Below, one piece after another: positions 4,958-41,072 of a DNA stretch of 64,000 bases. The notes under the pieces were generated by a model that ran no database searches, was not told the DNA's origin, and saw nothing but the letters and a program-made list of their open reading frames with translations. The first letter of the stretch is position 1. Every line of letters begins with the position of its first letter. Location of the stretch: NCBI GenBank assembly GCA_944349735.1, contig CALVNM010000002.1:242-64241 (forward strand), read 5' to 3'. Position numbers and translations under genes: made by a program. This DNA comes from an uncultured Clostridia bacterium (GTDB lineage Bacteria > Bacillota > Clostridia > Christensenellales > DTU072).

Positions 4958-4994
4958 TTTATTTATATATAAATAAAGCGCGCTTGATGCGCGC
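4958..4994 (-). terminator. rho-independent terminator of the atp operon
   Basis: GC hairpin GCGCGC-ttgat-GCGCGC (4978..4994), 21 nt after the atpC stop. On the minus strand it is followed by the T-rich tract TTTATTTATATAT... Confidence 0.7.
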
Positions 4995-5015: not shown

Positions 5016-7675
<2,660 letters not shown>

Positions 7676-7681
7676 ACCGCT

Positions 7682-9442
7682 CTATTGCTCCGCATGACGT
7701 TCCGTAAACTCTTTGACGAAAGCTTCTATCACTTCGTTGAAGCGTATTTCTTCTCTGTGATCGAGCGCGCCTCTGTCCGAAAGAGATCTCAGCAGCGCCG
7801 GTTGCTTCTCCTCGAAATGATCGTAAAGTTCGCGCAGGAAAGCACCGACGCAGCGTAGCGGTATTTCCTTCAGGAATCCATTGGAGACAGCGTAAAGGCT
7901 TACGGCTTCTTTGAGGAAAGACATCGGTTCGCCTTCGTTCTGTTTGAGAGCCTCGACCGTTTTTGCTCCGCTGTCGAGTACGGCTTTGGTGGAATCGCCG
8001 AGCGACGAGCCGAACTGCGCGAACACTTCCAGCTCGCGGTAATGGGCTATGTCGAGCCTCAGCGAAGAGCTTACTTTACGTATGAACGGACGCTGAGCCT
8101 GTCCGCCCACGCGGCTTACCGAAAGTCCGACGTTTATCGCCGGGCGTACGCCCGAATGGAAAAGCTCGCTTTCAAGATATATCTGTCCGTCCGTTATGCT
8201 TATAACGTTAGTAGGAATATAAGCGGAAATGTCCCCCGCAAGCGTTTCGATTATCGGAAGCGCGGTGACGGAGCCGCCGCCCATTTCGTCCGAAAGTTTA
8301 GCCGCTCTCTCGAGAAGGCGCGAATGGATGTAGAATACGTCTCCGGGATAAGCCTCGCGCCCTGCGGGACGTCTCAGCAGAAGCGATATTGCTCTATAAG
8401 CCACCGCATGTTTTGACAAATCGTCGTATACGATCAGAACGTCCTTGCCGTCGTACATGAATTGCTCGGCTATAGCGGCTCCGGTATACGGCGCGATATA
8501 CTGAAGAGGCGCCGAATCGTCCGCCGTCGTCAGCACTACGGTGGTGTACTCCATCGCTCCGTGCTTTTTGAGGGTACTGATAAGTTTACCTACGCCCGCT
8601 GCGCGCTGTCCTATCGCGACATATACGCAATAGACGTTCTTTCCTTTCTGGTTGATGATCGCGTCGGTAGCTATGGAAGTTTTACCTGTCTGCCTGTCGC
8701 CGATTATCAGCTCGCGCTGCCCTTTGCCTATAGGGATCATCGAGTCTATGGCGAGGATACCGGTTTCGAGAGGTTCCGATACCTTCTGCCTGTCTATGAT
8801 CTGAGGTGCAGGACTTTCTATGCAACGCGTTTCGTCTCCCGAAATGCGCTTACCGCCGTCGAGCGGCATTCCTAAAGGGTTCACGACTCTGCCGAGAAGC
8901 TCTTCACCTACAGGGACCTCTATTATCTTCCCTGTAGTATATACGTAATCGCCGTATTCCGCAGAATCGGCGTCGCTGAGTACGATAGCGCCGACGGTGT
9001 CCTTCTCCAGGTTCATCGCAAGCGCGAAACCGCCCGTACCCACGAGCAGCAGTTCGCCGTACCGACAGTTATTGAGACCCTCCACTTTTATGACGCCGTC
9101 CGCCGCGCTTATGACTTTGCCGCAATGCTCGAAGTCGGGCTTATGGTCGATCATTTCGGATAACTTACTCTTAAGAAGATCCGGAATGTCCTTGACCGAA
9201 ACGCCGTCTTTGTGCGAATGGAGTATCTTTTCGCTGTTTTTCCTTATACGTCTCAGTTCGGAAGCCACCGACGCGTCGTAAACGTCCTCTCCGTCCACTA
9301 TCATCACTCCGCCGACTATGGCGTCGATGACGTAACGGAAACGCAATTCTTCAGACTTGTCCGCTTCCCGCAATCCCTTCTCGAGACGTTGTTTCTGCGC
9401 CGAAGTAAGCGGCACAGAAGATTTGATGATTATTTCCCGCAT
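7682..9442 (-). CDS. atpA: F1 ATP synthase alpha subunit with an N-terminal ~75-aa delta(OSCP) C-terminal-domain-like extension
   Basis: 586 aa, whereas typical alpha is ~500 aa. Alpha core: GDRQTGKT Walker A, ...ITDGQIYLESELFHSGVRPAINVGLSVSRVGG. Residues ~80-125 match the canonical alpha N terminus. Residues 1-75 resemble the delta C-terminal domain. Only 9 nt separate the atpF stop from this ATG. Confidence 0.9.
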   Translation of the reverse strand: MREIIIKSSVPLTSAQKQRLEKGLREADKSEELRFRYVIDAIVGGVMIVDGEDVYDASVASELRRIRKNSEKILHSHKDGVSVKDIPDLLKSKLSEMIDHKPDFEHCGKVISAADGVIKVEGLNNCRYGELLLVGTGGFALAMNLEKDTVGAIVLSDADSAEYGDYVYTTGKIIEVPVGEELLGRVVNPLGMPLDGGKRISGDETRCIESPAPQIIDRQKVSEPLETGILAIDSMIPIGKGQRELIIGDRQTGKTSIATDAIINQKGKNVYCVYVAIGQRAAGVGKLISTLKKHGAMEYTTVVLTTADDSAPLQYIAPYTGAAIAEQFMYDGKDVLIVYDDLSKHAVAYRAISLLLRRPAGREAYPGDVFYIHSRLLERAAKLSDEMGGGSVTALPIIETLAGDISAYIPTNVISITDGQIYLESELFHSGVRPAINVGLSVSRVGGQAQRPFIRKVSSSLRLDIAHYRELEVFAQFGSSLGDSTKAVLDSGAKTVEALKQNEGEPMSFLKEAVSLYAVSNGFLKEIPLRCVGAFLRELYDHFEEKQPALLRSLSDRGALDHREEIRFNEVIEAFVKEFTERHAEQ

Positions 9443-9451
9443 ACCGCCTGC

Positions 9452-10030
9452 TTATTTCTTCTTCTTTTTTTCGGGAGCCGCAGCCTTAGTCGTGTCTGAA
9501 TCGGCGTCGCCGGCGTGGACAGCGCGGAATTGCTCGATAAGCGGCGCTATGACCGCTTCGTTATCATCCGCGTTAACCTCACGTTCAAGTATCTTGGACG
9601 ACATCGTAAGAGCAAGCGAAGTAACTTCGCGGCTTAGCGCCGCGCGTTCGCGCACTTCTTTCGCCGCCATATCCGCTTCCGCGCGCGCAACAATGTCTTT
9701 TGCGTCTTTACGGGCATTCTCAAGGATAGCGTCGGCTTCCTTGACCGCGTTGGCGTTGGCGTCGTCCTCTATTCTCGCGGCTTTGACTTCGGCCTCGCGG
9801 ATCTTGTCTTCCGCTTCGGCTTTCATCTTCTCAGCCTCTTCCTTCTTCCTTGCGTAATCCGCTTCCTCGTCGGCATATCCCTGCGCGCGCTTATCCATGA
9901 ACTTCTTGATCGGTTTATACAGCAAAAAGCGCACAGCAACTATCAGTATGATGAAGTTGAAGATATGGAGAAGGATCTCGATCACGTTCAATCCGAGCGG
10001 CATATCCGCCGCCGACATTATCACGTTCAT
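9452..10030 (-). CDS. atpF: Fo ATP synthase b subunit
   Basis: 192 aa. One N-terminal TM (VIEILLHIFNFIILIVAVRFLLYKPIKKFM), then a long charged coiled coil. Unusual Lys tail ...AAAPEKKKKK. Confidence 0.9.
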   Translation of the reverse strand: MNVIMSAADMPLGLNVIEILLHIFNFIILIVAVRFLLYKPIKKFMDKRAQGYADEEADYARKKEEAEKMKAEAEDKIREAEVKAARIEDDANANAVKEADAILENARKDAKDIVARAEADMAAKEVRERAALSREVTSLALTMSSKILEREVNADDNEAVIAPLIEQFRAVHAGDADSDTTKAAAPEKKKKK

Positions 10031-10040
10031 AAGCTCCTAC

Positions 10041-10280
10041 CTACATCGTCATGATAAGGATCGCCACGAGCAATCCGTAAATAGCCAGAGTTTCGCAGAA
10101 TGCCAGACCTAAGATCAATGTGGATCTGATCTTATTATCGGCTTCGGGCTGACGAGCTATGCCATCGAGAGCCTTACTGATGGACAGTCCCATGCCGAGA
10201 GCTGCGCCGAGGCCGGTAAGACCTATCGCGAGGGCAGCGCCCAAAGAGGAAAGTTCGCCTGCAAGAAGCATCAAGTTCAT
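10041..10280 (-). CDS. atpE: Fo ATP synthase c subunit
   Basis: 79 aa two-helix hairpin with the loop ...GIARQPEA... and the carboxylate helix [18 protein letters not shown]. Confidence 0.95.
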
Positions 10281-10308: not shown

Positions 10309-11043
10309 CTATTCTACAGCCTCACCTATGAATATGGCGGACAACGTAGCGAAAAGGAAGGACTGTATCAGCGCGTGGAATATCGTCGTGATGACCGAGA
10401 CGGCGGCAGGAACGACGAAACTCAGGTATATCACGCTGTATACAAGCTCGACGATTATGAAGCCGCTCATTATGGCTCCGAAGAGACGGAAAGAGAGCGA
10501 CAGCGGCACGGCGAGATCCGTTATGATATTTATCGGGTTACCGAGGTAGCGTTTGGCTCTGCCGAACAGCCCATTTTCGCGCAGACCGCAGTAATTGATG
10601 ACGAAGAACGTGGAAAGACCGAAAGCAAGGCAGGTATTGATGCTTGCGAAAGCCGGACGTATACCGAGAAGCTCCATAAGCGTGGTCAGGCAGATGAATA
10701 TCGCGGCTGTGGCGATATACGGACCGACGAAACTCGCCTGCCGCTTAAGGGGCGAAGCGGTCTTGTCGAAATACCCTACCAGTCCTTCGAGCAGTAGCTG
10801 AAGGCCTTTAGGCTGCTTCTTGAAACGCGGGATAACGAATATCCTTATAATGACGCAGGCGATAACGATGATCGCCGTTCCGAGAAAAGCCGAATACAAC
10901 GAGGGATTGACTTTGAGACCGAAAAAGTCGACGAGTTCGGGATCGATGGCTTCCTGAACGGCTTCGCTCATACCGCCGCCGAAAGCCTCTTTATAACTTT
11001 CCGCGAAAAAATCCGTAAAGGCGCTTGCCAGCATTGTAAGCAT
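10309..11043 (-). CDS. atpB: Fo ATP synthase a subunit
   Basis: 244 aa polytopic membrane protein, first gene of the operon. Conserved Arg helix ...[25 protein letters not shown]. Confidence 0.92.
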
Positions 11044-11118
11044 TGCATACCCTCCTTACTGACGCAGAAGTGACGGAGCGGACACTTTAATAGGTATCCT
11101 ATTATATAACGTCCCATT

Positions 11119-11147
11119 ATAATACACCCTTTTTCACGATAAATCAA
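11119..11147 (-). promoter_or_regulatory. candidate atp operon promoter
   Basis: The minus strand reads TTGATT - 17 nt - TATTAT(AAT), ~70 nt upstream of the atpB start. Confidence 0.35.
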
Positions 11148-11313: not shown

Positions 11314-12894
11314 TTATTCTTTGATAACGGAATGCTCCCAGCAATCGGGCGCACGGTATCCCATAAGTTCTACTACGGTAGCCGCAACGTTGGCAAGTCC
11401 GATACTTCCTTCTTCCTCGAGCGCCTTGACGGAAGAATTATAAATAATAAAAGGCACGGGGTTCAGACTGTGCGCGGTACGCACCGCGAGAGCGCCTTTT
11501 TTATTTTTCTCCAGCATCTGATCGGCGTTTCCGTGGTCGGCGGTTATCACGAGTACGGAATCGGTCTCGTCGATAACGGGAAGTATGCGTTGGATACCGA
11601 GATCCACAGCTTCAACGCCTATCACCGTAGCGTCCATATTGCCGGTATGTCCTACCATGTCGCCGTTGGGGTAATTGAGACGTATGAATCCGTATTTACG
11701 GGAACGTATCGCCTCTATGACCTTATCGGTTATCTCTGCCGATTTCATCCAGGGACGCTCGTCGAAAGACACTTTATCGGAAGGTATCTCCTCGAAGGTT
11801 TCCAGCTTCTCGCTGAATTTCTCGCTGCGGTTGCCGTTCCAAAAATAGGTGACGTGACCGTATTTCTGCGTTTCGGACACCGCGTATTGCGCGACGCCCT
11901 TCTCGACGAGGAATTCGCTCAGAGTGTGTTTGATGCAGGGCGGCTCCACCAAAAATCTCTTGGGAAGCGCGAGATCTCCGTCATACTGAAGCATTCCCGC
12001 ATAGAGAACGTCCGGAACTCTGCCGCGGTCGAAAGCGGAGAAATCCTTGTCGTCGAACGCTTCGCTTATCTCTATCGCGCGGTCGCCGCGGAAATTGAAA
12101 AGGATAACGGAATCGCCGTCCTCTATCGTACCTACGGGTTTGCCGTTCTCGGTGATAACGAAAGGAGGAAGATCCTGGTCGATAACGCCTTCGTTCTCTT
12201 TGCGGTAGGTCTCTATGGCTTCGGTTGCGGAAGCGAATCCCCTGCCCTCTCCGTGGACGTGGACGTCGTAACCCTTCTTAACCATATCCCAGTTGGCGCG
12301 ATAGCGATCCATGGTTATCTTCATTCTTCCGCCGCCGGAAGCGATCCTTCCGTCGAAGCCCGCGGCGTTGAGCTCCGCGAGTTTCGCTTCGAGCTCGTCA
12401 ACGTATACGAGCGCCGAAGTGGCGGGAACGTCCCTTCCGTCGAGAAGGATATGCACGCGCGCTTTTTTGATGCCCTGCGCTTTACACGCTTCGAGCATAC
12501 TGAGAAGGTGCGAGATGTTGGAGTGTACGTTGCCGTCCGACAAAAGCCCTATGAAGTGCATCGTGGAAGATTTTTTAAGACAATTCTCCTTGAGTTCCGT
12601 CCACGCTTTAGAAGCGTATATCGCCCCTGAAGAGATGCTTTCGTTGACGAGCTTTGCGCCCTGCGAATATATCTGACCGCAACCGAGCGCGTTATGTCCC
12701 ACCTCGGAATTTCCCATATCGTCGTCGGAGGGAAGTCCCACCGCAGTGCCGTGCGCCTTGAGATAGGTATGCGGACAGGTTGCGAGCAGCTTGTCTATGG
12801 CAGGCGTGCGCGCTTCGGATACGGCGTCGCCTATTCCGTCTGCGGATCTGCCGACGCCGTCCATAACTATCAAAACAACCTGTTTATCGCTCAT
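11314..12894 (-). CDS. gpmI: 2,3-bisphosphoglycerate-independent phosphoglycerate mutase
   Basis: 526 aa, MSDKQVVLIVMDGVGRS...DDDMGNSEVGHNALGCGQIY... and ...ITADHGNAD... (iPGM metal and Ser motifs). Confidence 0.97.
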   Translation of the reverse strand: MSDKQVVLIVMDGVGRSADGIGDAVSEARTPAIDKLLATCPHTYLKAHGTAVGLPSDDDMGNSEVGHNALGCGQIYSQGAKLVNESISSGAIYASKAWTELKENCLKKSSTMHFIGLLSDGNVHSNISHLLSMLEACKAQGIKKARVHILLDGRDVPATSALVYVDELEAKLAELNAAGFDGRIASGGGRMKITMDRYRANWDMVKKGYDVHVHGEGRGFASATEAIETYRKENEGVIDQDLPPFVITENGKPVGTIEDGDSVILFNFRGDRAIEISEAFDDKDFSAFDRGRVPDVLYAGMLQYDGDLALPKRFLVEPPCIKHTLSEFLVEKGVAQYAVSETQKYGHVTYFWNGNRSEKFSEKLETFEEIPSDKVSFDERPWMKSAEITDKVIEAIRSRKYGFIRLNYPNGDMVGHTGNMDATVIGVEAVDLGIQRILPVIDETDSVLVITADHGNADQMLEKNKKGALAVRTAHSLNPVPFIIYNSSVKALEEEGSIGLANVAATVVELMGYRAPDCWEHSVIKE

Positions 12895-27783: not shown

Positions 27784-30381
27784 TCATTTCTCCATTCTGT
27801 AACAAGGATACAGACGGATGTCGTAGTCGATCTCTTCGTCCAGGATGACGGGATAGAGGAAGTTCTCGTCCACGTACCAACCGATGAACGTATAGGTGTA
27901 TTCGGTGGAATTCTTCGTTACCTTCAGCGTATTCACGTTCGAGGAGCTGGACACTTTTATGGCGGAATCGGTGTAAGTAGGCACGTTCATCCAGTTTGCG
28001 GACTCGCTTGTCGCGTTGTAGTTGGTGCGGCATACGGACCCGATCTCTTCGTCGCTCATCACGTTCTCGGTGGAGGACACTACATAATTCGTAACACCGT
28101 ACCACTTGCCGGCGACCGCGTCTTTACTGGTCGAGCCGGACGCTCCGTTAGTAAACTTGTTGGAATCCTTCACGTCGGCAGCCGAGAGCATATAGAAAGT
28201 AACTTCTATCTGACCGTACATGTAACGGAGCACGATTTCGTGGTTGTCGAGGAGACGCGACAACGCCCAGTTGGTATCGTATTCCTTGGAGCAGTTGATG
28301 TGACCGTTGTTGTCGAGGCAGTTATCGAAGTCGCCGCCGCAGGAATAAGTCTTCCTGATAAGAGTATCTTCGAAATATTCGTCTACATGTATATTGTTGT
28401 GATCTTCGGGTTTGTAGGACTCGTAATTTACTGCGAGAGTATCTTTGATATTGCTCTTCACGCCTTCCCAGTTAGCGCCGTCCGCGGTCGTTATCTGGCT
28501 CGTCACGTTGGTATAGCTGTAATTACTTACGAGGTTCTGATACTTCGCGTAATTCCTGCCGCCGTCCTCTACGAGAGCCGCGTATGCGTTCTTCTGATAC
28601 ACTGGAGTGCTTGCCGCGCCGAGGAATTGGTCCTCGTCGGTACCGAGCGCTGCGAAGAAGCGGTCGATGTCTTTGTAATAAATGACTTCGCTCTTCTTGT
28701 TCGACTGTATGCCGCGCACGGAGTCTGCAGAATAGGACTTGATCTGATACTTGAGCGCCTTGGTGAGATCGGCATTGGTTATCGTAGCGTGGTTGATGGC
28801 GTAATCCTGGCTCTTGAGCTGTTCGAGTTCGAGACGGACTTTCTTGATCTTCTGATTGATGTTTTCCTGCTCGGTATCGGAAAGCTTGTTCCACTCGGTA
28901 TTCGCGGAGTTATAAGCAAGCGTTTTCTGGTTGCTTCCGGTGTACTCCCAGTTGACGTCGGAAAGCTTCAGCGTCGATTCGAATCCCATTTCGAGAGCCT
29001 GCTGCATCTCCTTGGTATAAGTGGTGACGCTGCTGCCGGTAGCGCTCATCGAGCCGTTGTAATAGCCGATGCCGCTCGAGAAACGGTTATTGTAACCGCC
29101 CACGTAGAGAGTTACGTCGTTCTCTTCCTGGAGAGCCTGGAAGTTCAACTGTTTCTCATAGTATTTCTGATAGCAGCTTATCGAATAACGGTATGCTTGC
29201 TCGTACTGTCTGCGATCGAAATCACGATAATCGAGCGCTTCGTTCTCGGAAGTGAAATAACTCTTATGGCTCAGTTTGAGGAAATATTCGTATTCGGTGA
29301 TCTCTTTACCGTTATAGGTCTTTTTCACGCTGTCGTCGAATACGTTGTAATCTCTATGTTTGTATTGATAGTGATAGCCGTACAGGGACATGGCGTTTGC
29401 TTTCTGTTCCGCCATATAGTTCGCGTTGAGAGACGTATATTCGCGGAAAGCGAGCAGATAACTCAAAGTCTCGTAATCGTACATTTCGTCGCGCATGTAG
29501 TTCTCGAGATCGCTGTCGCCGGTGATCTCGCCGTTAGCTTCTTCGTAAGCGGGAAGCATCACGGTCTCTACGATTTTGACGGCGTATCCGCACATGGTGA
29601 TGGCGGCTCTTGCGAACTGCGCCGCGTCGTCGCCGAAGATAGTGAATATCTCGCCGTAGACTTTGCGCTGTTTGAGGCTCAGCGCGTCATAAACGTCGTC
29701 CTCGGACTCAAACTTGGGTTTGGCATAGCTCGAATCATCTATATAAGCGTCGAAATCGTCGTATATCTCCTGAAGCTCCTCGAGCTGCGAGTAGTCCTCT
29801 ATCGCGCTGCTCTGTCCGATAGTAAAGGTATATCCGGTACCTTTCTCTCTGTCGGGATCTTCGCGCGCTATGTATTTGACTATGGCGTCGGTCTTATCTC
29901 TGTCGATAGCCGCTACCGAGAATCTCGCTATGATGTCGGCAGGCTCCGAATAGCAGAAAATACGCTCGACGGTGTTGGCAGACTCATCGGTCACCCAGTT
30001 GCCGCTGGCATCGAAATAACCTATATTTGACTGACGTTTCTCCTCGGTCTCGCCGTACGCCTTTGCCACCGGTCCGAAGGTATAATACTCGGTATTGTCC
30101 CAGGTGGTAACGTCGTCTATCCAGTACTCGCGTTCCTCGGTCTGCTTATCGGTAAGCTCTTTGTCCCAGTTCTTCTTATCGGTATCGGAATAATTGATAG
30201 CGTTGACCTCGTAATAACTCGGAGTGCCGTAGTCGACCATGTCGGGCAGTATTTTGATGTCAACGGCGGTCTTAGTATCGTCGGTATTGGTTGTTTTGTC
30301 TTTTTTACAGCTCACAAGGCCTAATACCGTTGAGCAGAGCAAAGCCAACACGACAATGAAAGCAAAAATTTTTCTTTTCAT
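27784..30381 (-). CDS. 865-aa lipoprotein of unknown function with a C-terminal Listeria-Bacteroides-type repeat
   Basis: Signal peptide plus lipobox: MKRKIFAFIVVLALLCSTVLGLVSC. The body is rich in Tyr/Asp/Glu/Asn and I recognise no family. The C terminus ...YTYTFIGWYVDENFLYPVILDEEIDYDIRLYPCY matches the Flg_new repeat pattern. Starts 48 nt downstream of the giant gene. Confidence 0.88.
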   Translation of the reverse strand: MKRKIFAFIVVLALLCSTVLGLVSCKKDKTTNTDDTKTAVDIKILPDMVDYGTPSYYEVNAINYSDTDKKNWDKELTDKQTEEREYWIDDVTTWDNTEYYTFGPVAKAYGETEEKRQSNIGYFDASGNWVTDESANTVERIFCYSEPADIIARFSVAAIDRDKTDAIVKYIAREDPDREKGTGYTFTIGQSSAIEDYSQLEELQEIYDDFDAYIDDSSYAKPKFESEDDVYDALSLKQRKVYGEIFTIFGDDAAQFARAAITMCGYAVKIVETVMLPAYEEANGEITGDSDLENYMRDEMYDYETLSYLLAFREYTSLNANYMAEQKANAMSLYGYHYQYKHRDYNVFDDSVKKTYNGKEITEYEYFLKLSHKSYFTSENEALDYRDFDRRQYEQAYRYSISCYQKYYEKQLNFQALQEENDVTLYVGGYNNRFSSGIGYYNGSMSATGSSVTTYTKEMQQALEMGFESTLKLSDVNWEYTGSNQKTLAYNSANTEWNKLSDTEQENINQKIKKVRLELEQLKSQDYAINHATITNADLTKALKYQIKSYSADSVRGIQSNKKSEVIYYKDIDRFFAALGTDEDQFLGAASTPVYQKNAYAALVEDGGRNYAKYQNLVSNYSYTNVTSQITTADGANWEGVKSNIKDTLAVNYESYKPEDHNNIHVDEYFEDTLIRKTYSCGGDFDNCLDNNGHINCSKEYDTNWALSRLLDNHEIVLRYMYGQIEVTFYMLSAADVKDSNKFTNGASGSTSKDAVAGKWYGVTNYVVSSTENVMSDEEIGSVCRTNYNATSESANWMNVPTYTDSAIKVSSSSNVNTLKVTKNSTEYTYTFIGWYVDENFLYPVILDEEIDYDIRLYPCYRMEK

Positions 30382-30429: not shown

Positions 30430-33400
30430 TCAAGCCGCTATGTCCTGTTGCACCGGCGCCGCCTCCAGCAAAGTATAATATCTCTGCCAGTAGGAATGCT
30501 GACGGTATTGCGCGAGATTCGCCGCGGGGACATATATTGCCTGCATGGCGCTCAACGCAGATCCGGGATTTATTGCGCCGGGATCGGTCGACGTAAGCGT
30601 CACCGCAGAGACCGTAGTCCCGCTGAAAGCGTAGTCCGCTATCACGCGTACTCCCGAAGGAATGGTGTACTCGGTCGCAGTTCCCTTATAGAACAACAAC
30701 CTTCCGTTATAGATGTACGCGCCGTCGGTAAGACCGTTGTCGTTACTGAGAGCGTCGTACCAGGGTGTGCCTTCGAATGCGCCCTGTCCTACCGTCTCGA
30801 TACCTTCGGGGAAGGTAAACGACGTAAGCGACGTGCATCCCGCGAACGCGCCTGCGGGTATGCTTCTCACATAACTGCCGAGCGCGAAGGATACCGATGT
30901 GATAGAGGTATTTCCGGAGAATACCCCTCCGCCTATGCTCTGCACGGTAGTAGGTATCACTATGTCTCCGCCCGCGCCGCGGTAAGCAACGAGTTTGGTC
31001 CCCACTACTATCATTTCGCCCTGCGCGGCAAGCCACGGAGTGCCTTCGAACGCAGCGATCTCTAGATAATTGAGCGAAGCGGGCAACGTTACCGTAGCAA
31101 GCGAAGCGCAACCCGCGAACGCCTTGCCCGTGATGCTCTCGATACGCGTGCCCGTAGCGAATGCAAGCGATACTATATTCGTATTGCCGACGAAGACGTA
31201 ATCGTAGATATAAGTCACGTTGGCGGGAATGGTTATCTCGGGCGAAGTACCTTTATATCCGATGAGCTTGCCGTTGACCGCGATATACGAACTAGTCTGT
31301 CTCGTATACCAGTTGGTGCCGAGGAAAGCGTCCTTACCGATCTCAATATTGGTTCCCGGGAAGGTCACCGTATTCAGCGAAGTGCAATTCATGAAGGCTT
31401 CCGCGGGTATAGTGATAAGCGAAGTTCTCGCGTCAAATGTAAGCGATACTATATTCTTGTTGCCCGTGAACACGTTCTCGGCAAAAGAATTAACGTCGTT
31501 CGTGATCCTGATCGAAGTACCTTCCTCGAGATAAGCAAGCAGTTTTCCGTTGACAACGAGCAACGCCTGACCGTAACCGTCTGCCCATGCCGTATTGTAG
31601 AAAGCGCGGTAACCGACAGAGCGTATCTTATCGCTGAAAGTAATTTCCGCAAGATTTACGCAGTTGCGGAAAGCTTCCGCGTCGATCGAAAGCTCCGCGT
31701 CGATATTTTCGAAGGACAGCGACGTTATCGAAGCATTCCCCGTGAATACTCCTGCGGCTATACGGCTTACGCCTGCGGGTATGACTACCTCGCCGCCTTT
31801 GCCGGAATATGCACTCAGGACTCCGTTAATCACGGTCATTCCTGCCTCGGATGTCACGCCGTTAGCGTAAAGCGTGCCGGCGAATATGTCTCCCGACACG
31901 TCGACGTACTCTATTCCGTTGACTGTCTGCAGGAACGCGCAACCGTTGAACGCGCCGGTTTCGACCGTTACGGGAGCGGTGAACGTGATCTCGGTAAGGT
32001 GCGTATTGCCTTTGAAGACGTGGGCGGGTATATAGCTCACGTTTTCGGGGATAACTGCGGATGCCGGTCCGCTCTTAGCGGCTATAAGCAAAGCGCCGTC
32101 CCCTGCCGCAGCAAGCAGCAAGTCGTCGTCGGAGGCTTCGAATGCCGCGAGATAACCCGTGCCTGTGAACGCGCCGGAACCTACGTAAACCGTAGAGGGA
32201 GCGAAGATCACCGTAGTCAGCGAAGTCATACCGGAGAACGCACCTGCGGGTATTTCCGTTATCGAAGTGGCGCTCATATCAACAGACACGATACCGCTCT
32301 TTCCGCTGAACGCGCCCGCGTCGAGAGCCGTGATACCAGCGGGGAGCGTTACCGCCGAAGCGGAACCGTTATAGCGCACGAGTTTACCGCCGACCACGAC
32401 GAATTCCGCGGTCAGCGCGTTGAGATAAGGCGTGCCGCTGAACGCGTTGTCCCCTATAGTTTTGATCGCGCTTACCAGGGTAACGGTACTGAGCGAAGAG
32501 CAACCTTCGAAGGCTCCTGCCGGTATCTCGGTAAGTCTGGTATTCTCGGTAAATACGATACCTGTGATCGTGGTGACGCCGCGGAAAGCGTTGGGAGCGA
32601 TCTCCGTAACGTCGTAAGGTATCCTCACCATGCCGCCGTTACCCACGTATAATACGGCGCGTTTGATGCCGTTATATGCGTCTATATAATACAGTATATC
32701 GTTGGAATTTATCCAAGCCGTTCCGGTGAACGCAGTCTTATCGATATTCACGATATACTCAGAGAGCGTTATCGACGTAAGATTGGCACAGTCGCGGAAG
32801 GTATTGGCGTCAACGGTATCCATAAGGCAATAGCGGTCAAATGTAACGGAAGTGATGTCTTCGTTGCCGCGGAACACGTACGAATATATCTTCTCCGTTC
32901 CCGCAGGGATCACTATATCCGACGAGGCGCCTATATAAGCGATCAACGCTCCGCCCAGGACGACGTAGCCGTTCTCGTCTGCTACTGAAGCGAGCCACGG
33001 CGTATCGGCAAATGCGTTTTCGCCGTAAACGGTCACCGTTTCGGGCAACACAATATCGGTCAGCGCCGTGCATCCCATGAATGCTTCCGCAGGTATTTCG
33101 GTGATATTCGAAACATATTCTCCGAATATTATTCCCGTAATTGTCGTATTGCCGCGGAAAGCGTCTGCGGAAATGCCTTTGATATTCGAGCCGTAAATAT
33201 TGCCGATGCTGACTACGCCGCCCGCTCCGTTATACTTGATCACGAATCCGCCGAGAGTGACAAGTTCTTCAGAACGATCGTCGTACCACGCGGTACCGAC
33301 GAAAGCGCCGTTACCTATCCTCGAAATGCTGCTCGGAGGATCGACCGAAGTCACTCCGGACCAGCCGTATGCGTAATTATCGGTGATCTCGGTAGCGTAA

Positions 33401-36400
33401 TCGCTGAAACCGAGGCTCGTTATATTAGTAAGCGGCTCGCGTCCTCCGATGAGCGACGACAGCGAGCGGTTGCCGTCGGACACGAAGCGATAAACGCCTA
33501 TCGTCGAGAGCAGACCGTACATATCGTCGGCGGAAACAGTGGCTCCCGGCGCAAGTTCCACAGTCTCTATCCCGGGATCGCAGGTGAAGGTCTCGCCTTC
33601 TATAGCGAACGAAACCGGTTCGAGCGCGCCTGAGGTCACGGAGACCACGTCGGATTCTATGAGATAATATCCGTTGTCGCTCGAGATCTTCTGGTAAAGT
33701 ACGCCCTGTATCTCGGCGTCCGTACCTGCATTTATATGATCCGCGAGCCAACGCGTGTTATGGAAAGCGCCTCTGCCTATAGAAACGAGCGATGAAGGCA
33801 AAGTAAGCGATCTGAGATTTACGCATCCGTAGAAAGCTTCCTCGCATATCGTCGTCAAAAGGCTTCCGCTTGCAGACAAATTGAGAGAAACGAGGTACTC
33901 GTTATTCTTGAACGCGCCCGCGGAGATAACCTTCACTTCGGTAGGCAATATGACCGAAGGCGAAGTGCCGTAGTACTTGACCAGCGTCGCGCCTACGCTG
34001 TCTCCGCTGACGATAAGCATATCGTTTTCTGTTTTGAACGCGGTTCCCTCGAAGGCGTTATCGGCTATAAATCTCATCGAAGAAGGCAGCGTTATGCTGT
34101 TGAGAGATACGCAACCCGCGAATGCGTAATCGAGTATCTCGGTCGCTTTGCTCCCCGCTTCGAAGCGTATACGGGATACTTTAAGCGTGCTTGAGGTATC
34201 CCAATCGCCGGAATCGCCGGCATTTTCATTCCAGACCAATGTACTGAACGCACCGGTGTTTATAACTTTGACAGACGCGGGTATGACCACGGTTGCGGAC
34301 GAGCCTTTATATTTATAGAGCAATCCTCCGCCCAATATCACGAACTCTCCGGAGCCTGCGTACCACGCGGTATTCTCTAGAGAATTGGGACCAACCTGTT
34401 CAATGCTGTCTGGGAACGTCACCGAGGTTATGAGATCCCAGTTAACCAAGAGGTTCTTGACGGTGGAAGTAACTCCGTCTGACACTGTTACTCCTGTAAG
34501 AGTTTCGGGTCTTACCGAAGGAACGCCGAGCAATTCGTCCAAAGTTATGCTGCCGTCGTACTCTATCTCGATTACCTCTTTGTCACGGACGACCTGCCAT
34601 AAGGCTTCGCCCTGTTTCGCAGTGCCGTTCACGTCGTATAAGATCAGCTTATCGAGAGCGTGTATATTGTCGAACGTCTTTTCTTTGTCGAATACGGAAG
34701 TAAGGCTTATGCCGACCGTCTTGACCGTATGCAGGAATGCATTCGCGCCGATATTGGCGATATTGTACTCGGTGCCGTTCACGTTTATCGTAGCCTTCAC
34801 CGTCACGCCGTCGTAATCGGTGACCGCCGCGATATTGCCGTCAGCGTCATAGTTTTCGGTATACTTGCGGTAGAAATGCAAAGTACGCGTAGCGGTATCG
34901 AATATTATCTGTTCGAATACGCCTTCCGATATTTCTTTGACGGAGTTGACGATGGAGCCGTTTTCCTTGGGATTGTAACTCTGCCAGCCCTGGGCCTGGT
35001 AAGATGCGAGCGAACCAACGGGAATAAATATTTCCAACGTACCTCCGACGTTGAATACGGAATTGCCGAGCACCGGCGCCGTCGATCCCGCCATAAAGAC
35101 TTTCACCACGTTGACCGCGCCTGAGAAGGCGTTGTCGCCCAGCGCGACGACGCTTGCGGGTATATACACTACGGCGAGATCCGTAGCCGTGGCAAACGCG
35201 CCGCCGTTAACTCTCACTGTCTCTTCCGGGATATCCGCCACGGCGCCCAGTCCCTTATAATCGATAAGGTTACCGCCGAGAACGGTGATGAAATCGCCGT
35301 CGTAATCGTTCATCCACGCCGTTCCTCTGAACGCGTATGCGCCTACGGCGGCTTCGATGAATACGTATCCGGCGTCTGCGTCGTCCTTATTAGTATTCTC
35401 GAGAGGAACGAGTTGTGAATCGACTTCTACGTATATGTTTTCCACGTACGTCGCGTTATACAGGAATCTGTCGACTATCTTATTGTCGGAAGACCCCGTC
35501 TCGAATCCCGTGATCACCACGCTTACGATATTGGCGGGAAGCGCGTCCGCGGAGCCGAACAATTCTTCCACGCTGTTGTTCCCGTCCACTCGGATCTCGG
35601 TAAGCGAAGCGTTCGCTCCGACGAGCGCCTTGAGGCTGGAGGCTATGCCTACGCTTCCGCCGGCGCCGCCATTATAATATATGGTTAGAGAGACGAGCTT
35701 CGTAACGCCCGAGAACGCCTTTCCGAGATCTTCGCTCCCTATCGGCTTTAGTGCGGAATTGACCGTCAGAGAAGTCGTGGAACGCAGCAACGCGTAATCG
35801 GCTATCTGCGTTACGTTATAATGCCCTATCATCTCGGGTACGACGATAGTTCCGTCGTTATCGATCGATTTGATAAGCATCAGCCCGCCGAGAGAGGAAT
35901 CGGAATATATATATCCTGCCTCTTCATCTATAACTATGTTGGTTACCTGGACGGCAGTGGCTCCCGCTATCCAGTTGGTATACGCGCCGTGCGAATAAAC
36001 CTTGAGTATCGCTCCGGAAGTAAACGCGTTTACTCCGAGAGAAGGTCTCGACGAAGGCATTGCGACCACGGTTGCGAGTTTTGCGTCGTTGTAGAAGGCG
36101 TATGATCCTATATTCTCTACGTGCGCGGGAATGACGACGGCTTCGAGAGAAGCGCATTCGGCGAAAGCGTATTCGCCTACGGTCACGAGTTGCGAGCCGC
36201 TTCCCGCTATCAGAACGGTAATCGCGCTGTCGGCATAGAAAGCGTAAGGCGCTATCGTGACGACTTCGTCGGGCAGAGAGACTACGGCTTCGCCCGAACC
36301 GTTATATTTATAAAGGATACCCTGACCCACTATCACGAATGCGTCGCCGTGTCCGTTCAGCCACGGGGTATTCGTGAAGGCGTCGGAACCTACGGAAGTT

Positions 36401-39400
36401 ATACCGGTGGGCAATCCTTCCGCACCGAGATAACGGAAATCCATAAGAGATACGCAGCCGTTAAACGCGTTCGCGCCTATCGACGTCACGCTTCCGCCTT
36501 GGAAGTAAACGGCTTTGAGCGCCGTATCGTTACGGAAAGCGCCCGCGGAAACGGAACCGACCGATGCGCCGATACGCACTTCCGTGATATAGGGGTTATT
36601 GGCGTACGCGTTATCCGACATCGCACCGGTGAATTCGAGAACGAGTATCTTGAGATTGACCGGAGCGTTGCCGCCGAATATTTCCGCAAGAGAGAGATCC
36701 GCAGCGCCGAGCGTGAGCGTATTGAGCGTCGCGCTTGTGGCGAAAGCGTTATAGAGATCCTGCGAAGAAGCGGAAATGCCCGAAGCTCCGAGGATGAGAT
36801 TGCTTAGTGATGTCGCCGAAGAGAACGTGTATGCAGTTATGGTCACGCCGGCGGGCAACGTCACTTCCGTTACCGAAGCGCCGAATACGTAATCGGCTAT
36901 GCCCGATACAGCCATATTGCCGCCGCCTACCGTAATAACTGTCGGAACGACGACGGAAGTTTCATTGCCGATATACTGCCGGAGCACTGCTTTGCCGGCT
37001 ACCGATTCGTAAGTCCAGTTGCCGGAATCGTCGACGTTTGCGGAAGAGCAAAGTCTCGACGCAAGAGCAAGCCAGTTGGCTCCCGCCCCGGAAGCCGTAT
37101 ATGCGGTAACGTTGGGAACGTAAATGCGGAACGCGCTGTACGCTTCGTCGTTCCGTGTAAACACGTCGGCGCCGAGGTTACACGGAATAGTCCTGTCGAA
37201 TACCGCATAACGCAGGAAATTGCAGCCTGCGAAGGCGTTATCTCCTATCTCTATCACGGAAGCGGGAATACGCACGTAAGTGAACGACGCGCAGTTATAG
37301 AAAGCGCCCGCCCCTATCGTAGTGAGCGTTTCCGGGAAAGAAGTACCCTCTGAATACGTCATGGCTCCGTCGAGGAGCTTGCAACCCATGAACGCGCTGT
37401 TGCCTATAGCGGTAAGAGTGGAATTCGAGGGGAATTTCACGGTAGCAAGCGAGATGCATCCGTTGAAGCAGTTATCGGGTATAACGGATACTTTCTCGGG
37501 TATCTCTATGTGCTCCAGTTTAACTGCGTTTCTGAACGCGTTGGGTCCTATCTTGAGAATAGTAGACGGCAATACTATCCTGCGCACCGAGTCGTTATCC
37601 GCGAATGCGTCCGCGGCGATCTCCGTGACCGGCTTGCCGTTATAATAATTCGCTACCACGAACACGCCGTCGGCGGGAATGTCGCTCGCGTCGATACCCG
37701 AAGCGATGTACGCGTCTCCCGTACCGTTGAGCGTATACGTTATACCTACGGTCGTGGTCTGAATTTCCCATCTCGCGTACAATTCCGCGGGGGCGGTCGC
37801 GGGATTGCCGAATGCGAATTCGTATGAATAAGTCTCGTCTGTATACCAACCGAGGAAGACATATCCTTCCTTATCTTCCGATTCGGGCGCGTAGACGATC
37901 TCGCCGTAAGTATATACGCGAGTCTCGACGATCTCTTCGTCTCCGTCGAAAATTCCGGTATGATATACGAATTCGTACCTGCTTGCGGTAAATTCGGATT
38001 CGAACACGAGCTCGCTCTCGACTGCATAATACAATCCGCCCGCGAACGCTACAGTTCCTTCGGCGATTTCCTCAGGCGCAGCGCCCTCTTTTACGAGACG
38101 CCACCTGCCGTTATATTCTTCCAATCCGGACACGAGCCTTATCCAATCGCCGGATATAAGCGCACTTTCGAGTGAATCGGTATTCTCGGCATAATAGTAT
38201 CCGTCTAAAGTTACTATCAGCGCGCCGTCGAGAACGCACGTTCCTTCCGCGGCATCGGCGGCGAACAACTTCCACAGGCTCTTTCCGCCGTCGCCTATAC
38301 CGTATCCGAGCAACAGTTTGGTTCCCCCTCTCGCTATACGCCAGCCGACAAAGTCCTTACCTTGCTCGGAAGGCGCGGATACTATGGTATTCATGGGAAG
38401 GAAAGTGTAGTATTCGAGATACTGTTCGGTCGTGGTTCCCGTTCCGTTATAGACAGTCTGCGGATATACCTCGTTGGTCAGAGGGTTACGGAAACGTACG
38501 GGATACGTATTGGTCCTGAACGTGGGACGCAATGTGATGTCCTCGGTCACGACGTTCATATTCTTATCGCCGTCCACCACCCAACCGGTAAACGTATAGC
38601 CGATCTGAGCGGGCAGATCGTACAAGGACGACGGGAATACCGCGGCGGAACCGTGTTCGATAGAGGTGACGGTTATGGTCTCGCCGACAGCGTCCTTCCA
38701 GGTAGCGGAATACTTAGCTATCTCGTAGTTGGAACGGATATCCGTGTCTTCCGTTATTATGTAAGACGCAACGTCTACCTGCCAGGAAATAAATTTCCTT
38801 CCGTTGACCGGCTGTGCAGGTCTGGGAATGTCGGTGACCGTGGAACCGTATTCGACGTCGCGGGTAGCGAATACAGCGTCCGGGAAAAGGAATCTGACCG
38901 TGAATACTATGGGCGTGTACTTAGGGATCAGATTTATATTGCCGGTCACGGGAAGAGACCAGTCGTATGCGTCCGCCGCCGTCACGCCGCCGCTGTAAAT
39001 ATGCCATGCGCCGGTTTTGCCCGGTTGTTCCTCGATAGCGGGCGCGGACGCTTCGTCGAATATCTGACCGTTCTCGACCTCGAAAACGGCTACCGGCACG
39101 GTAGCTCCGGTCTCGGTCTCGTTAAGGAACGTCACCGTGTAAAGTCTCGTCCATTTGGCGTAGAGCGAAAGCACGACGCCGTCTCTCACCTCGTATCTGT
39201 CTAGGACCTGTTCGTTTATCTTCCATTCGTTGACGTATGCGCTGTCGGTATACCAACCCGCGAATTTGTATCCGCTGTAAACAGGCGTGTCGAGAATGAT
39301 GTAGCTGTCGAAACGCACGTTATCCACTATGCGCGAAGCGTTGGGATTATCGGGGTTATTGCCGTCGTACACTCTGATACTGTAAAGATTGGGTTCGAAT

Positions 39401-41028: not shown

Positions 41029-41072
41029 AATACCTCGAAGCGCGCGAATGCGCCGGCGCATAATATATAATA

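Follow-up and report, generated by a model that had tools for sequence, protein, structure and literature searches.

Organization of the atp operon

The window, that is, the whole 64-kb stretch of DNA that was analysed, carries an F-type atp operon on its minus strand with the gene order a-c-b-[fusion]-gamma-beta-epsilon, which follows the canonical order a-c-b-(delta)-alpha-gamma-beta-epsilon. A promoter-like site (TTGATT, 17-nt spacer, TATTAT; positions 11119 to 11147, minus strand) lies 5' of atpB and is a pattern match only, from a consensus scan. The same scan returned a second promoter-like match (11268 to 11240), also a pattern match only, which overlaps a hairpin (11279 to 11258) just downstream of a gpmI-like open reading frame (ORF; 11314 to 12894). 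The first gene, atpB (10309 to 11043, minus strand), encodes Fo subunit a of 244 aa (PF00119 ATP-synt_A, E 4e-28) and has the strongest Shine-Dalgarno motif in the operon, AAGGAGGG. It is followed on the same strand by atpE (10041 to 10280), encoding Fo subunit c of 79 aa (PF00137 ATP-synt_C, E 1.6e-21), and by a single copy of atpF (9452 to 10030), encoding Fo subunit b of 192 aa. The b protein matches PF00430 over residues 19-149 (E 8e-20) and TIGR01144 over residues 23-167, and ends in a tail of about 24 residues that is acidic and then Lys-rich; PF00430 was its only Pfam match, and no OSCP domain was detected on it.

The TAA stop codon of atpF (9454 to 9452) is separated by a spacer of 9 nt, GCAGGCGGT (9443 to 9451, minus strand), from the ATG at position 9442, at which an ORF of 586 aa begins that extends to position 7682. 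The spacer is identical in four independent metagenome assemblies, and its length agrees with that given in an earlier note on this DNA, made from the sequence alone. The b stop codon and the fusion ORF are in the same frame, which is probably incidental, given that the related locus L003 lacks this arrangement. All parts of the 586-aa ORF lie on the minus strand. Residues 1-68 (9239 to 9442) correspond to the delta/OSCP C-terminal domain (PF00213 positions 105-170 of 172), the predicted docking module for the b2 dimer, and residues 69-82 (9197 to 9238; NSEKILHSHKDGVS) form a linker, at the place taken by GSGG in 9jc1_I, the engineered chain described below. The alpha N-terminal helix is retained in residues 83-100 (9143 to 9196), where the TIGR00962 alignment starts, where AlphaFold2 places a helix (residues 83-98) and where the protein aligns to the alpha N terminus of 9jc1_I. 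Residues 101-586 with the stop codon (7682 to 9142; PF02874, PF00006 and PF00306) make up the F1 alpha body, consisting of the beta-barrel crown, the nucleotide-binding domain and the C-terminal domain.

The operon continues on the minus strand with atpG (6821 to 7675; gamma, 284 aa; PF00231, E 9e-77), atpD (5410 to 6810; beta, 466 aa; PF00006 and PF02874) and atpC (5016 to 5417; epsilon, 133 aa), the last identified as an ORF, with PF02823 ATP-synt_DE_N recorded for the identical gene in L081-L084. A terminator-like hairpin with a T-run (4978 to 4994, minus strand) lies 22 nt past the atpC stop codon and is again a pattern match only, from the consensus scan. No second ATPase or ion pump was found in the annotated 64-kb window; the context of the operon consists of housekeeping genes only, for glycolysis, glycogen metabolism, IleRS and transporters.

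Domain identity of the 586-aa protein

A full delta/OSCP subunit is a single protein of about 175-180 aa, composed of an N-terminal alpha-helical bundle, whose usual position is on the pseudo-threefold axis of alpha3beta3, and a C-terminal alpha/beta domain, to which the b2 peripheral stalk attaches by its C termini. The alpha N-terminal helix is part of the canonical docking site.

The resemblance of the N-terminal region of the 586-aa protein to delta/OSCP is far beyond chance. The Pfam OSCP family (PF00213) was matched on residues 4-68 with an E value of 6.2e-9 and a score of 36.6 bits against a cut-off of 22.3, in agreement with the proposal in the earlier note that the first 75 or so residues resemble the delta C-terminal domain. 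Only positions 105-170 of this profile are present, and the region is not a full-length delta/OSCP as described by PF00213 and TIGR01145. In the PDB, a profile of the N-terminal 100 residues matched delta/OSCP chains, 29 in number, with E values from 8e-14 to 4e-4. The delta part was modelled by AlphaFold2 as strand-helix-three strands-helix with pLDDT values of 75-90, followed by the helix of residues 83-98, and the last delta helix ends in the first linker residues. When the model of the N-terminal region was submitted to Foldseek, the top 42 matches were all delta/OSCP C-terminal domains, the best being the Bacillus PS3 delta subunit (6n2y_I), with an identity of about 29 % over the delta domain. 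The ORF opens with the first strand of this C-terminal domain, and no N-terminal segment precedes it.

The remainder of the protein is an alpha subunit, with Pfam matches to ATP-synt_ab_N (residues 107-171), ATP-synt_ab (228-443) and ATP-synt_ab_C (450-575). Residues 83-580 align to positions 4-502 of the NCBIfam model TIGR00962 (atpA) with a score of 712 bits against a cut-off of 484. This start of the alignment places the canonical alpha N terminus near residue 80, as had been noted earlier. The model for the alpha subunit of the N-ATPase (TIGR03324) scored the protein at 584 bits, below its cut-off of 750. The best full-length match in the PDB is 9jc1_I (580 aa), of which residues 8-577 align to residues 6-580 (E 6.8e-180).

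For the missing half of delta, a hidden Markov model (HMM) of the delta N-terminal domain was built from 10 canonical deltas. It gave no match in any of the six frames over the full 64 kb of the window, in which an HMM of the C-terminal domain matched the alpha ORF alone; the lack of a stand-alone atpH and of the N-terminal bundle in the operon, both reported in the earlier note, was thereby upheld across the window. As a positive control, the N-terminal HMM found every canonical operon (E 1e-15 to 1e-44), and among 80 species-level genomes its matches were confined to 14 canonical operons, with a single match per operon. It detected no such domain within 6 kb of the 65 operons that are without it. 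A location of the domain hidden in the C terminus of b was considered and rejected, as marginal matches (E 0.003-0.01) occurred only in the b ORFs of L013, L023, L025 and L033, where they were treated as helical noise, and none occurred in the window.

Integrity of the junction and distribution in relatives

Comparison with the atp operons of relatives, which the earlier note had proposed as a check, found the same delta-alpha fusion in 55 of the 80 related species-level genomes, including the cultured species Anaerocaecibacter muris. A further 10 of the 80 encode the same truncated delta as a separate gene of about 75 aa, whose products score under the TIGR01145 cut-off. In a neighbour-joining tree without support values, the alphas from operons that have no delta N-terminal domain form one clade, which consists mainly of Christensenellales-type genomes and includes the protein of the window. 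As judged from these genomes, the fusion is the norm in a large clade of Clostridia from the gut and anaerobic digesters. The N terminus of the fused domain is conserved (MR-x-I-x-V-K-S), linker length and sequence vary among relatives, and a few (L012, L032 and L039) have lost the alpha N-terminal helix. Read-through between the two genes of the split lineages was rejected, since the truncated delta ends in TAA (TGA in L066) and a proper ATG follows 3-11 nt on in 9 of the 10, the spacer before the ATG being longer in L035; the short spacers would fit ordinary translational coupling. The covalent link is evidently not strictly needed for function, because these sister lineages manage with an unfused truncated delta.

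A profile search of protein representatives with the N-terminal alignment also returned truncated deltas that stand alone, as well as deltas in which the C-terminal domain is repeated in tandem, in two or three copies. Fused alphas were absent from that listing, probably because they were merged into alpha clusters at 50 % identity, and no fusion count was taken from it. Homologue searches with the N-terminal 134 aa gave no match and those with the N-terminal alignment gave canonical deltas only, as the word-index prefilter misses fused proteins.

That the 586-aa ORF is a real, functional delta-alpha fusion is almost certain, and three other accounts of the locus were weighed against it. The chance of an assembly or sequencing artefact (a collapsed atpH, a frameshift or a chimeric contig) is put at virtually nil. 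An A-rich run, GAAAAAAAGAAGAAGAAA, just upstream of the junction does offer a context prone to indel errors, but four independent assemblies from different samples have exactly the same junction DNA, the exact protein was found on 31 contigs (in 54 index blocks), and other species at 88 %, 75 % and 50-60 % identity have the same architecture, with the start motif conserved directly after the b gene. The assembly deletion raised as a concern in the earlier note is not supported, and a collapsed segment of about 300 bp at the junction already looks excluded. Two separate polypeptides, alpha and a delta fragment, are also an improbable product of the ORF, whether by internal initiation or by proteolysis in the linker. 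Such an outcome would resemble the split lineages, in which the truncated delta of about 75 aa precedes a normal alpha, and the linker is indeed the least constrained segment, with dN/dS values of 0.11-0.50; against it, there is no ATG, GTG or TTG codon between residues 61 and 96, and use of the next in-frame start, M97, would cost the protein its N-terminal helix, in line with the earlier note; M97 is also without a Shine-Dalgarno motif. A scan of all 55 fused loci led to the rejection of an internal translation start, because a candidate with a Shine-Dalgarno motif is absent from most of them and none is conserved; start codons and Shine-Dalgarno motifs at the junction thus gave no evidence for downstream initiation of alpha. 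Read-through of the in-frame b TAA to give a b-delta-alpha protein was likewise rejected, as L003 does not share the frame and the ATG with the MRE start is conserved.

A very improbable account is that a normal delta is supplied from elsewhere in the genome, by a full-length atpH or by another complete atp operon, leaving the fused domain accessory or vestigial. The search covered 64 kb of the genome, which leaves some room for such a gene, but the N-terminal domain is missing from the surroundings of the relatives' operons as well as from the window, and the trait defines the whole clade. The fused domain, with its conserved N terminus, also does not evolve like a vestige: its dN/dS is 0.07-0.09 against three congeners and that of the alpha body 0.05-0.07, values that are approximate because dS is saturated (about 1-1.5) and that indicate purifying selection on the delta domain as strong as that on alpha.

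Known relatives of the architecture and the peripheral-stalk number

The earlier note knew of no described delta-alpha fusion, but the kind is already on record. Ueno et al. (Nat Commun 2025; PMC12229609) fused the delta C-terminal domain, without the N-terminal domain, to alpha of Bacillus PS3 (construct delta(105-178)-GSGG-alpha; PDB 9JC1/9JC2), and cryo-EM of the engineered enzyme showed as many as three b2 stalks and three a-subunits, with canonical b2 binding. It carried about two stalks on average, the value obtained both by SDS-PAGE and from function, while the cryo-EM data gave about 1.26 stalks per particle with many single-stalk particles; its H+/ATP ratio was 5.9, about twice as many protons per ATP (PMC12229609). 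The same paper, in its Discussion and in one supplementary figure, mentions natural fusions as three proteins awaiting experimental verification (UniProt D2RLW6 from Acidaminococcus fermentans, G4Q3K6 and A0A1I2C5T3), and several stalks were predicted by the authors for the Acidaminococcus fusion (PMC12229609).

The protein of the window has the defining features of the engineered fusion: the delta C-terminal domain stands alone on the alpha N terminus, the N-terminal bundle is absent, the alpha helix is kept, and the two proteins (580 aa and 586 aa) are collinear over residues 6-580 of the latter. They differ in the linker, which is GSGG in the construct and a natural segment of about 14 residues in the window. 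They may also differ in epsilon, which is without its C-terminal domain in the engineered enzyme and has 133 aa in the operon of the window. The protein of the window is natural, and the values of stalk number and H+/ATP were measured on the engineered enzyme. With the A. fermentans fusion the window shares a natural atp operon in which delta is joined to alpha and the delta N-terminal domain is missing. A. fermentans is the only organism named by Ueno et al. for the natural fusions, and the window, which belongs to a Candidatus Stercoripulliclostridium-like Clostridia genome, adds a natural case from a much larger, Christensenellales-like clade of Clostridia, of which no description was found in the literature on the Christensenella delta subunit or in papers citing Ueno 2025.

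Three further systems were compared. The F1Fo of Chloroflexus aurantiacus has two peripheral stalks, two a-subunits and a delta whose N-terminal domain is shortened (Zhang et al., PNAS 2025; PDB 9ITJ series); its delta is a separate protein of 157 aa with a four-helix N-terminal domain and dimerises atop F1 (Zhang et al., PNAS 2025). This delta is the best PDB sequence match for the N-terminal profile of the family, and in both enzymes, which are natural and F-type, the delta N-terminal domain is reduced or absent; in Chloroflexus its reduction accompanies multiple b2 stalks and multiple a-subunits. However, the window has no separate delta gene and the Chloroflexus delta is not fused to alpha. 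The N-ATPase (alternate F1Fo) resembles the window in that its operon has no delta gene and a delta C-terminal-like module without the N-terminal domain is carried on a neighbouring subunit; positions 178-245 of 246 in its long b model (TIGR03321), the C-terminal 70 or so residues, match a truncated delta from the clade (E 5e-5). The gene order differs, and the module is fused to b rather than to alpha and is therefore present once per b chain, not once per alpha. The mycobacterial b-delta fusion (e.g. PDB 7JG5 chain d) is likewise a peripheral-stalk gene fusion with delta, but it joins a full-length delta, including the N-terminal domain, to a b-like segment, whereas b is separate in the window, and the B/delta model NF009961 gave no match above noise on either b or the fusion.

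The explanation favoured here, with a probability of roughly 0.7, is a genuine, maintained fusion in which covalent anchoring probably allows more than one stalk. The covalent link would take the place of the non-covalent contact by which the delta N-terminal domain is anchored on the alpha N termini, so that each of the three alphas would carry its own b2 docking site. Nothing would then be left to break the threefold symmetry, so the enzyme could probably bind additional b2 stalks, each paired with an a-subunit, to a maximum of three as in the engineered enzyme. The presence of more than one stalk in vivo, judged by analogy with that enzyme and with Chloroflexus, is an even bet. With additional a-subunits the ion-to-ATP ratio would go up, and the changeover between ATP synthesis and ATP-driven pumping would occur at a lower membrane potential, which would be plausible for a fermentative gut anaerobe. 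The earlier note had found it puzzling that three alphas should each carry a delta C-terminal domain for one peripheral stalk; as the premise of a single stalk is overturned by the engineered enzyme, the puzzle has a candidate answer, for which there is experimental support in that enzyme.

A sizeable minority chance is given to the alternative that a single peripheral stalk is kept, one delta C-terminal domain binding b2 and the other two lying idle atop F1. Expression could limit the enzyme to one stalk, as there is one copy each of the a and b genes, in normal order; the many single-stalk particles of the engineered enzyme also point this way, and no stoichiometry of a natural fusion was found in the literature. 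On the other hand, the engineered fusion gained stalks and a-subunits without any other adaptation, the three docking modules are identical polypeptides with no symmetry-breaking element encoded in the operon, and the atpB ribosome-binding site, the strongest in the operon, is weak evidence in the same direction.

Beyond the favoured explanation of a fusion that probably allows more than one stalk, a wider proposal by analogy falls just short of even odds: the whole clade without the delta N-terminal domain, fused or not, may naturally assemble two to three b2 stalks with their own a-subunits, up to a3b6c_n, as a clade-defining bioenergetic adaptation of fermentative gut anaerobes to a very low membrane potential, the fused and split forms having replaced each other repeatedly. 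The engineering of 2025 showed that the number of a-subunits, besides the size of the c-ring, can set H+/ATP, and a multi-stalk state has been seen once in nature, with the two stalks of Chloroflexus. If the proposal is true, the ions moved per ATP would be doubled or tripled across the clade, and, together with the deltas that have tandem C-terminal domains, multi-stalk F-ATPases would have been reached by several independent natural routes. The fusion is not a curiosity of Acidaminococcus, as the architecture is widespread in a clade of Clostridia that offers tractable organisms, including the cultured A. muris, and a natural series of variants with short or long linkers, with or without the alpha N-terminal helix, and in fused or split form. 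This series could serve to test natural three-stalk F-ATPases and their role in fermenters at low pmf. In current annotation the fusion proteins are labelled only 'F0F1 ATP synthase subunit alpha', and their operons appear to be without atpH.

The fused alpha gene of the atp operon

On the minus strand of the window, the atp operon comprises the genes for subunits a (atpB, 11043-10309), c (10280-10041) and b (10030-9452), a fusion ORF of 586 aa (9442-7682), and the genes for gamma (7675-6821), beta (6810-5410) and epsilon (5417-5016). The b gene ends in TAA (9454-9452) and only 9 nt separate it from the ATG of the fusion ORF at 9442, which leaves no space for atpH between b and alpha, as the earlier note had stated. 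In the Pfam search, residues 4-68 of the fusion matched OSCP (PF00213, positions 105-170 of 172) with 36.6 bits, above the 22.3-bit cut-off, and were followed by three alpha domains; the NCBIfam atpA equivalog alignment begins at residue 83 (712 bits, cut-off 484). The described 586-aa ORF, with a delta C-terminal-like segment ahead of a canonical alpha from about residue 80, was thus confirmed; all factual statements of the note hold up, and its finding is real and was read correctly.

When the N-terminal 100 residues of 31 members of the family were made into a profile and run against the PDB, 29 delta/OSCP chains matched (E 8e-14 to 4e-4). The AlphaFold2 models (mean pLDDT 81 for the full length and 77 for residues 1-100) contain a strand (2-8), a helix (14-27), three strands (33-39, 46-50, 53-56) and a helix (58-76), followed by the alpha N-terminal helix (83-98). 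The best 42 Foldseek matches in the PDB were all delta/OSCP C-terminal domains, headed by Bacillus PS3 delta (6n2y_I, rmsd 2.9 A over 69 columns), and the three lines of evidence agree that the N-terminal segment is a delta C-terminal domain.

Several explanations that would remove the fusion were weighed. An artefact, including the collapsed assembly considered in the earlier note, is unlikely, as the b-to-fusion junction DNA is the same in four assemblies from different samples and the exact 586-aa protein occurs on 31 contigs of public assemblies (in 54 index blocks). Against three congeners of 86-88% identity, of which the closest named is Candidatus Stercoripulliclostridium pullicola, Nei-Gojobori dN/dS came to 0.07-0.09 in the delta domain and 0.05-0.07 in the alpha body, with higher values of 0.11-0.50 in the linker; the ratios are approximate because dS is saturated. 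The domain start, M-R-x-I-x-V-K-S...L-T-x-x-Q-K, is kept across the family. The fusion has been maintained as a coding feature. Separation of alpha from a delta fragment by processing or internal initiation is also improbable, the latter because no ATG, GTG or TTG was found between residues 61 and 96, in accordance with the note, and no Shine-Dalgarno motif was found for M97. A delta encoded elsewhere in the genome is, on a search that covered the window and the related loci, unlikely as well. When the six-frame ORFs from the window and from 80 related loci were searched with delta N-terminal and C-terminal HMMs, the N-terminal HMM recovered all canonical deltas (E 1e-15 to 1e-44) and had no match in the 64-kb window or within 6 kb of any fused-type operon, and the C-terminal HMM match in the window was confined to the alpha ORF. 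The sole delta-N-terminal-like trace in four fused-type operons (L013, L023, L025, L033) was a marginal match (E 0.003-0.01) of the N-terminal HMM to b ORF residues ~99-161, in the C-terminal half of b, which is probably noise from helical composition.

The Shine-Dalgarno motif of the fusion gene is weak (GCAGGCGG, window 9443-9460), and its translation probably relies on coupling to b. The strongest motif of the operon precedes the a gene (AAGGAGGG, window 11044-11060); this would agree, weakly and far from proof, with a higher a stoichiometry. The b TAA lies three codons upstream of the fusion ATG in the same frame, a register not common to the related locus L003. The C-terminal tail of b is acidic and then Lys-rich (…DADSDTTKAAAPEKKKKK), is encoded from an A-rich run (GAAAAAAAGAAGAAGAAA, window 9452-9475, minus strand) and reaches ~24 residues past the canonical b end; congeners have the tail too. 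The c subunit (10041-10280) has M at the position of Ilyobacter tartaricus Q32 and E-T-L at the place of E-S-T in the Na+-binding motif of I. tartaricus, a comparison that would point to H+ over Na+ coupling.

Distribution of fused and split forms

The operons of relatives bear the fusion out. Scanning GTDB species, each represented by a single genome, gave 80 loci. In 55 of them a linker of ~12 to >60 residues joins the delta C-terminal domain to alpha; these come from Christensenellaceae, Christensenella and many Clostridia and Bacillota metagenome-assembled genomes. Ten loci (L035, L042 at 5875-6102, L045, L046, L051-L053, L055, L058 and L066) encode a truncated delta, the C-terminal domain only (PF00213 positions ~104-172), as a separate gene of ~75 aa (72-80 aa) between b and alpha. 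A further 14 are canonical, with b, a delta of 175-183 aa and alpha, and one is interrupted by a contig end. The stop codon of the split delta is TAA or TGA, and in nine of the ten loci the ATG of an ordinary alpha lies 3-11 nt beyond it (further in L035), an arrangement that suits normal translational coupling better than read-through.

In a neighbour-joining tree of alpha cores, which carries no support values, the operons that lack the delta N-terminal domain all group in a single clade adjoining Thermoanaerobacterium-type canonical operons, with the split form at three places inside it. The simplest reading would be one loss of the N-terminal domain, then a few switches between fusion and fission. 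Many protein-database clusters combine PF00213 with PF00006 and PF00306, all labelled just 'F0F1 ATP synthase subunit alpha', and the fused proteins include one of 618 aa from the cultured Anaerocaecibacter muris.

The canonical docking site for b2 includes the alpha N-terminal helix. In the fused alphas of L012 (5923-7620), L032 (5983-7677) and L039 (5983-7677) the delta domain sits almost directly on the beta-barrel crown and Walker A is at 227-230 versus the usual ~250, so this helix is missing. Linkers also vary among P0023-P0025 and P0030, whose N-terminal regions are 127 aa, and P0082 and P0115 of the Anaerocaecibacter type: the helix motif is apparently duplicated in some fusions (…LKSKISEL…LKSQLERL…), and others have Lys/Pro/Ala-rich linkers of 50-60 residues. 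Dozens of further stand-alone truncated deltas (68-82 aa) occur among the representatives clustered at 50% identity. Unstable binding of a free truncated delta was feared by Ueno et al. (PMC12229609); such a form appears to be in actual use by nature.

Known systems and the number of stalks

The best PDB match of the full-length fusion was 9JC1 chain I (580 aa; 6-580 to 8-577, E 6.8e-180), titled 'ATP synthase delta subunit, ATP synthase subunit alpha', from an engineered Bacillus PS3 enzyme (Ueno et al., Nat Commun 2025, PMC12229609). These authors reasoned that the delta N-terminal domain, on the pseudo-threefold axis, restricts the enzyme to one stalk; they removed delta 2-104 and joined 105-178 to alpha via GSGG. 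The resulting enzyme had a mean stalk number of about 2, up to three b2 stalks by cryo-EM, each with one a-subunit and with b2 docked canonically on the delta C-terminal domain, an H+/ATP of 5.9 and a halved equilibrium pmf. The window fusion is put together from the same kinds of parts in matching order. Ueno et al. also point out that the Acidaminococcus fermentans operon naturally encodes such a fusion, with the delta N-terminal domain missing (D2RLW6, named alongside UniProt G4Q3K6 and A0A1I2C5T3), and predict natural multi-stalk enzymes, 'awaiting experimental verification'. A delta-alpha fusion, of which the earlier note knew no description, has thus been described: the window fusion is not a new kind but corresponds in nature to an engineered design already in print, and A. 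fermentans is a natural precedent mentioned briefly in the literature. The F1Fo of Chloroflexus aurantiacus, whose delta is the top PDB match of the family's N-terminal profile, was solved by Zhang et al. (PNAS 2025, PMC12002316); it has two stalks, each F1Fo carries two a-subunits, and the N-terminal domain of its delta is shortened. Within the library covered, the literature search returned no account of a Christensenellales-type clade with the fusion or of a split truncated delta, and no experiment on a natural delta-alpha fusion.

In every alpha chain a delta C-terminal domain comes first, then a short linker and the helix that normally begins alpha; the symmetry-breaking delta N-terminal domain is not encoded in the operon. 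The covalent link would take over the anchoring of the delta N-terminal domain to the alpha N termini and would place equivalent b2 docking sites on all three alpha subunits, so that more than one b2/a unit could be recruited. We give more than one stalk in the natural enzyme even odds (about 0.5); the main rival is a single-stalk enzyme with two delta domains idle. With several stalks, three a-subunits and a c10-like ring would give about 10 ions per ATP and, by our arithmetic at a phosphorylation potential of ~55 kJ/mol, a reversal potential down to roughly 55-60 mV. Such a value would suit an organism with glycolysis and glycogen genes, which are present in the window, and no respiratory or ion-pump genes, none of which occur in the window annotation. 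The analysis adds that the delta-alpha architecture characterises a large Clostridia clade with a cultured member and natural variants (operons with a split delta, fusions that lack the alpha N-terminal helix and fusions with long linkers), which makes the multi-stalk hypothesis directly testable.

Other delta-domain arrangements and window genes

Some deltas carry tandem C-terminal domains, with two to three stretches matched by PF00213: P0121, P0122 and P0123 (360-412 aa), P0136 and P0143 (285 aa), and P0125, P0128 and P0133 (145-157 aa). Their forms are an N-terminal domain with three C-terminal domains, an N-terminal with two, and two C-terminal without an N-terminal. They may be a further way in which nature gives F1 several docking sites for b2, of which no mention was found in the literature consulted. 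In P0157 (535 aa), EAD7 and TIR domains stand alongside two repeats matching the delta C-terminal domain and, faintly, FliH, so that a defence-like protein has apparently taken over a stalk-type domain. Over positions 178-245 of 246, its C-terminal ~70 residues, the N-ATPase 'long b' model TIGR03321 matches the truncated delta of L066 (E 5e-5); by this alignment, delta-less N-ATPases may carry a delta C-terminal-like module on b, an extension called E-subunit-like in the literature consulted. Elsewhere on the minus strand of the window, a 3543-aa ORF (30430-41061) adjoins an 865-aa ORF (27784-30381) that has no Pfam match at E 1e-5. The remaining genes are housekeeping: gpmI, tpiA, pgk, the glycogen genes glgA/C/D/B/P, IleRS, a Na/Pi cotransporter and an ABC transporter whose N terminus is extended by roughly 500 aa.
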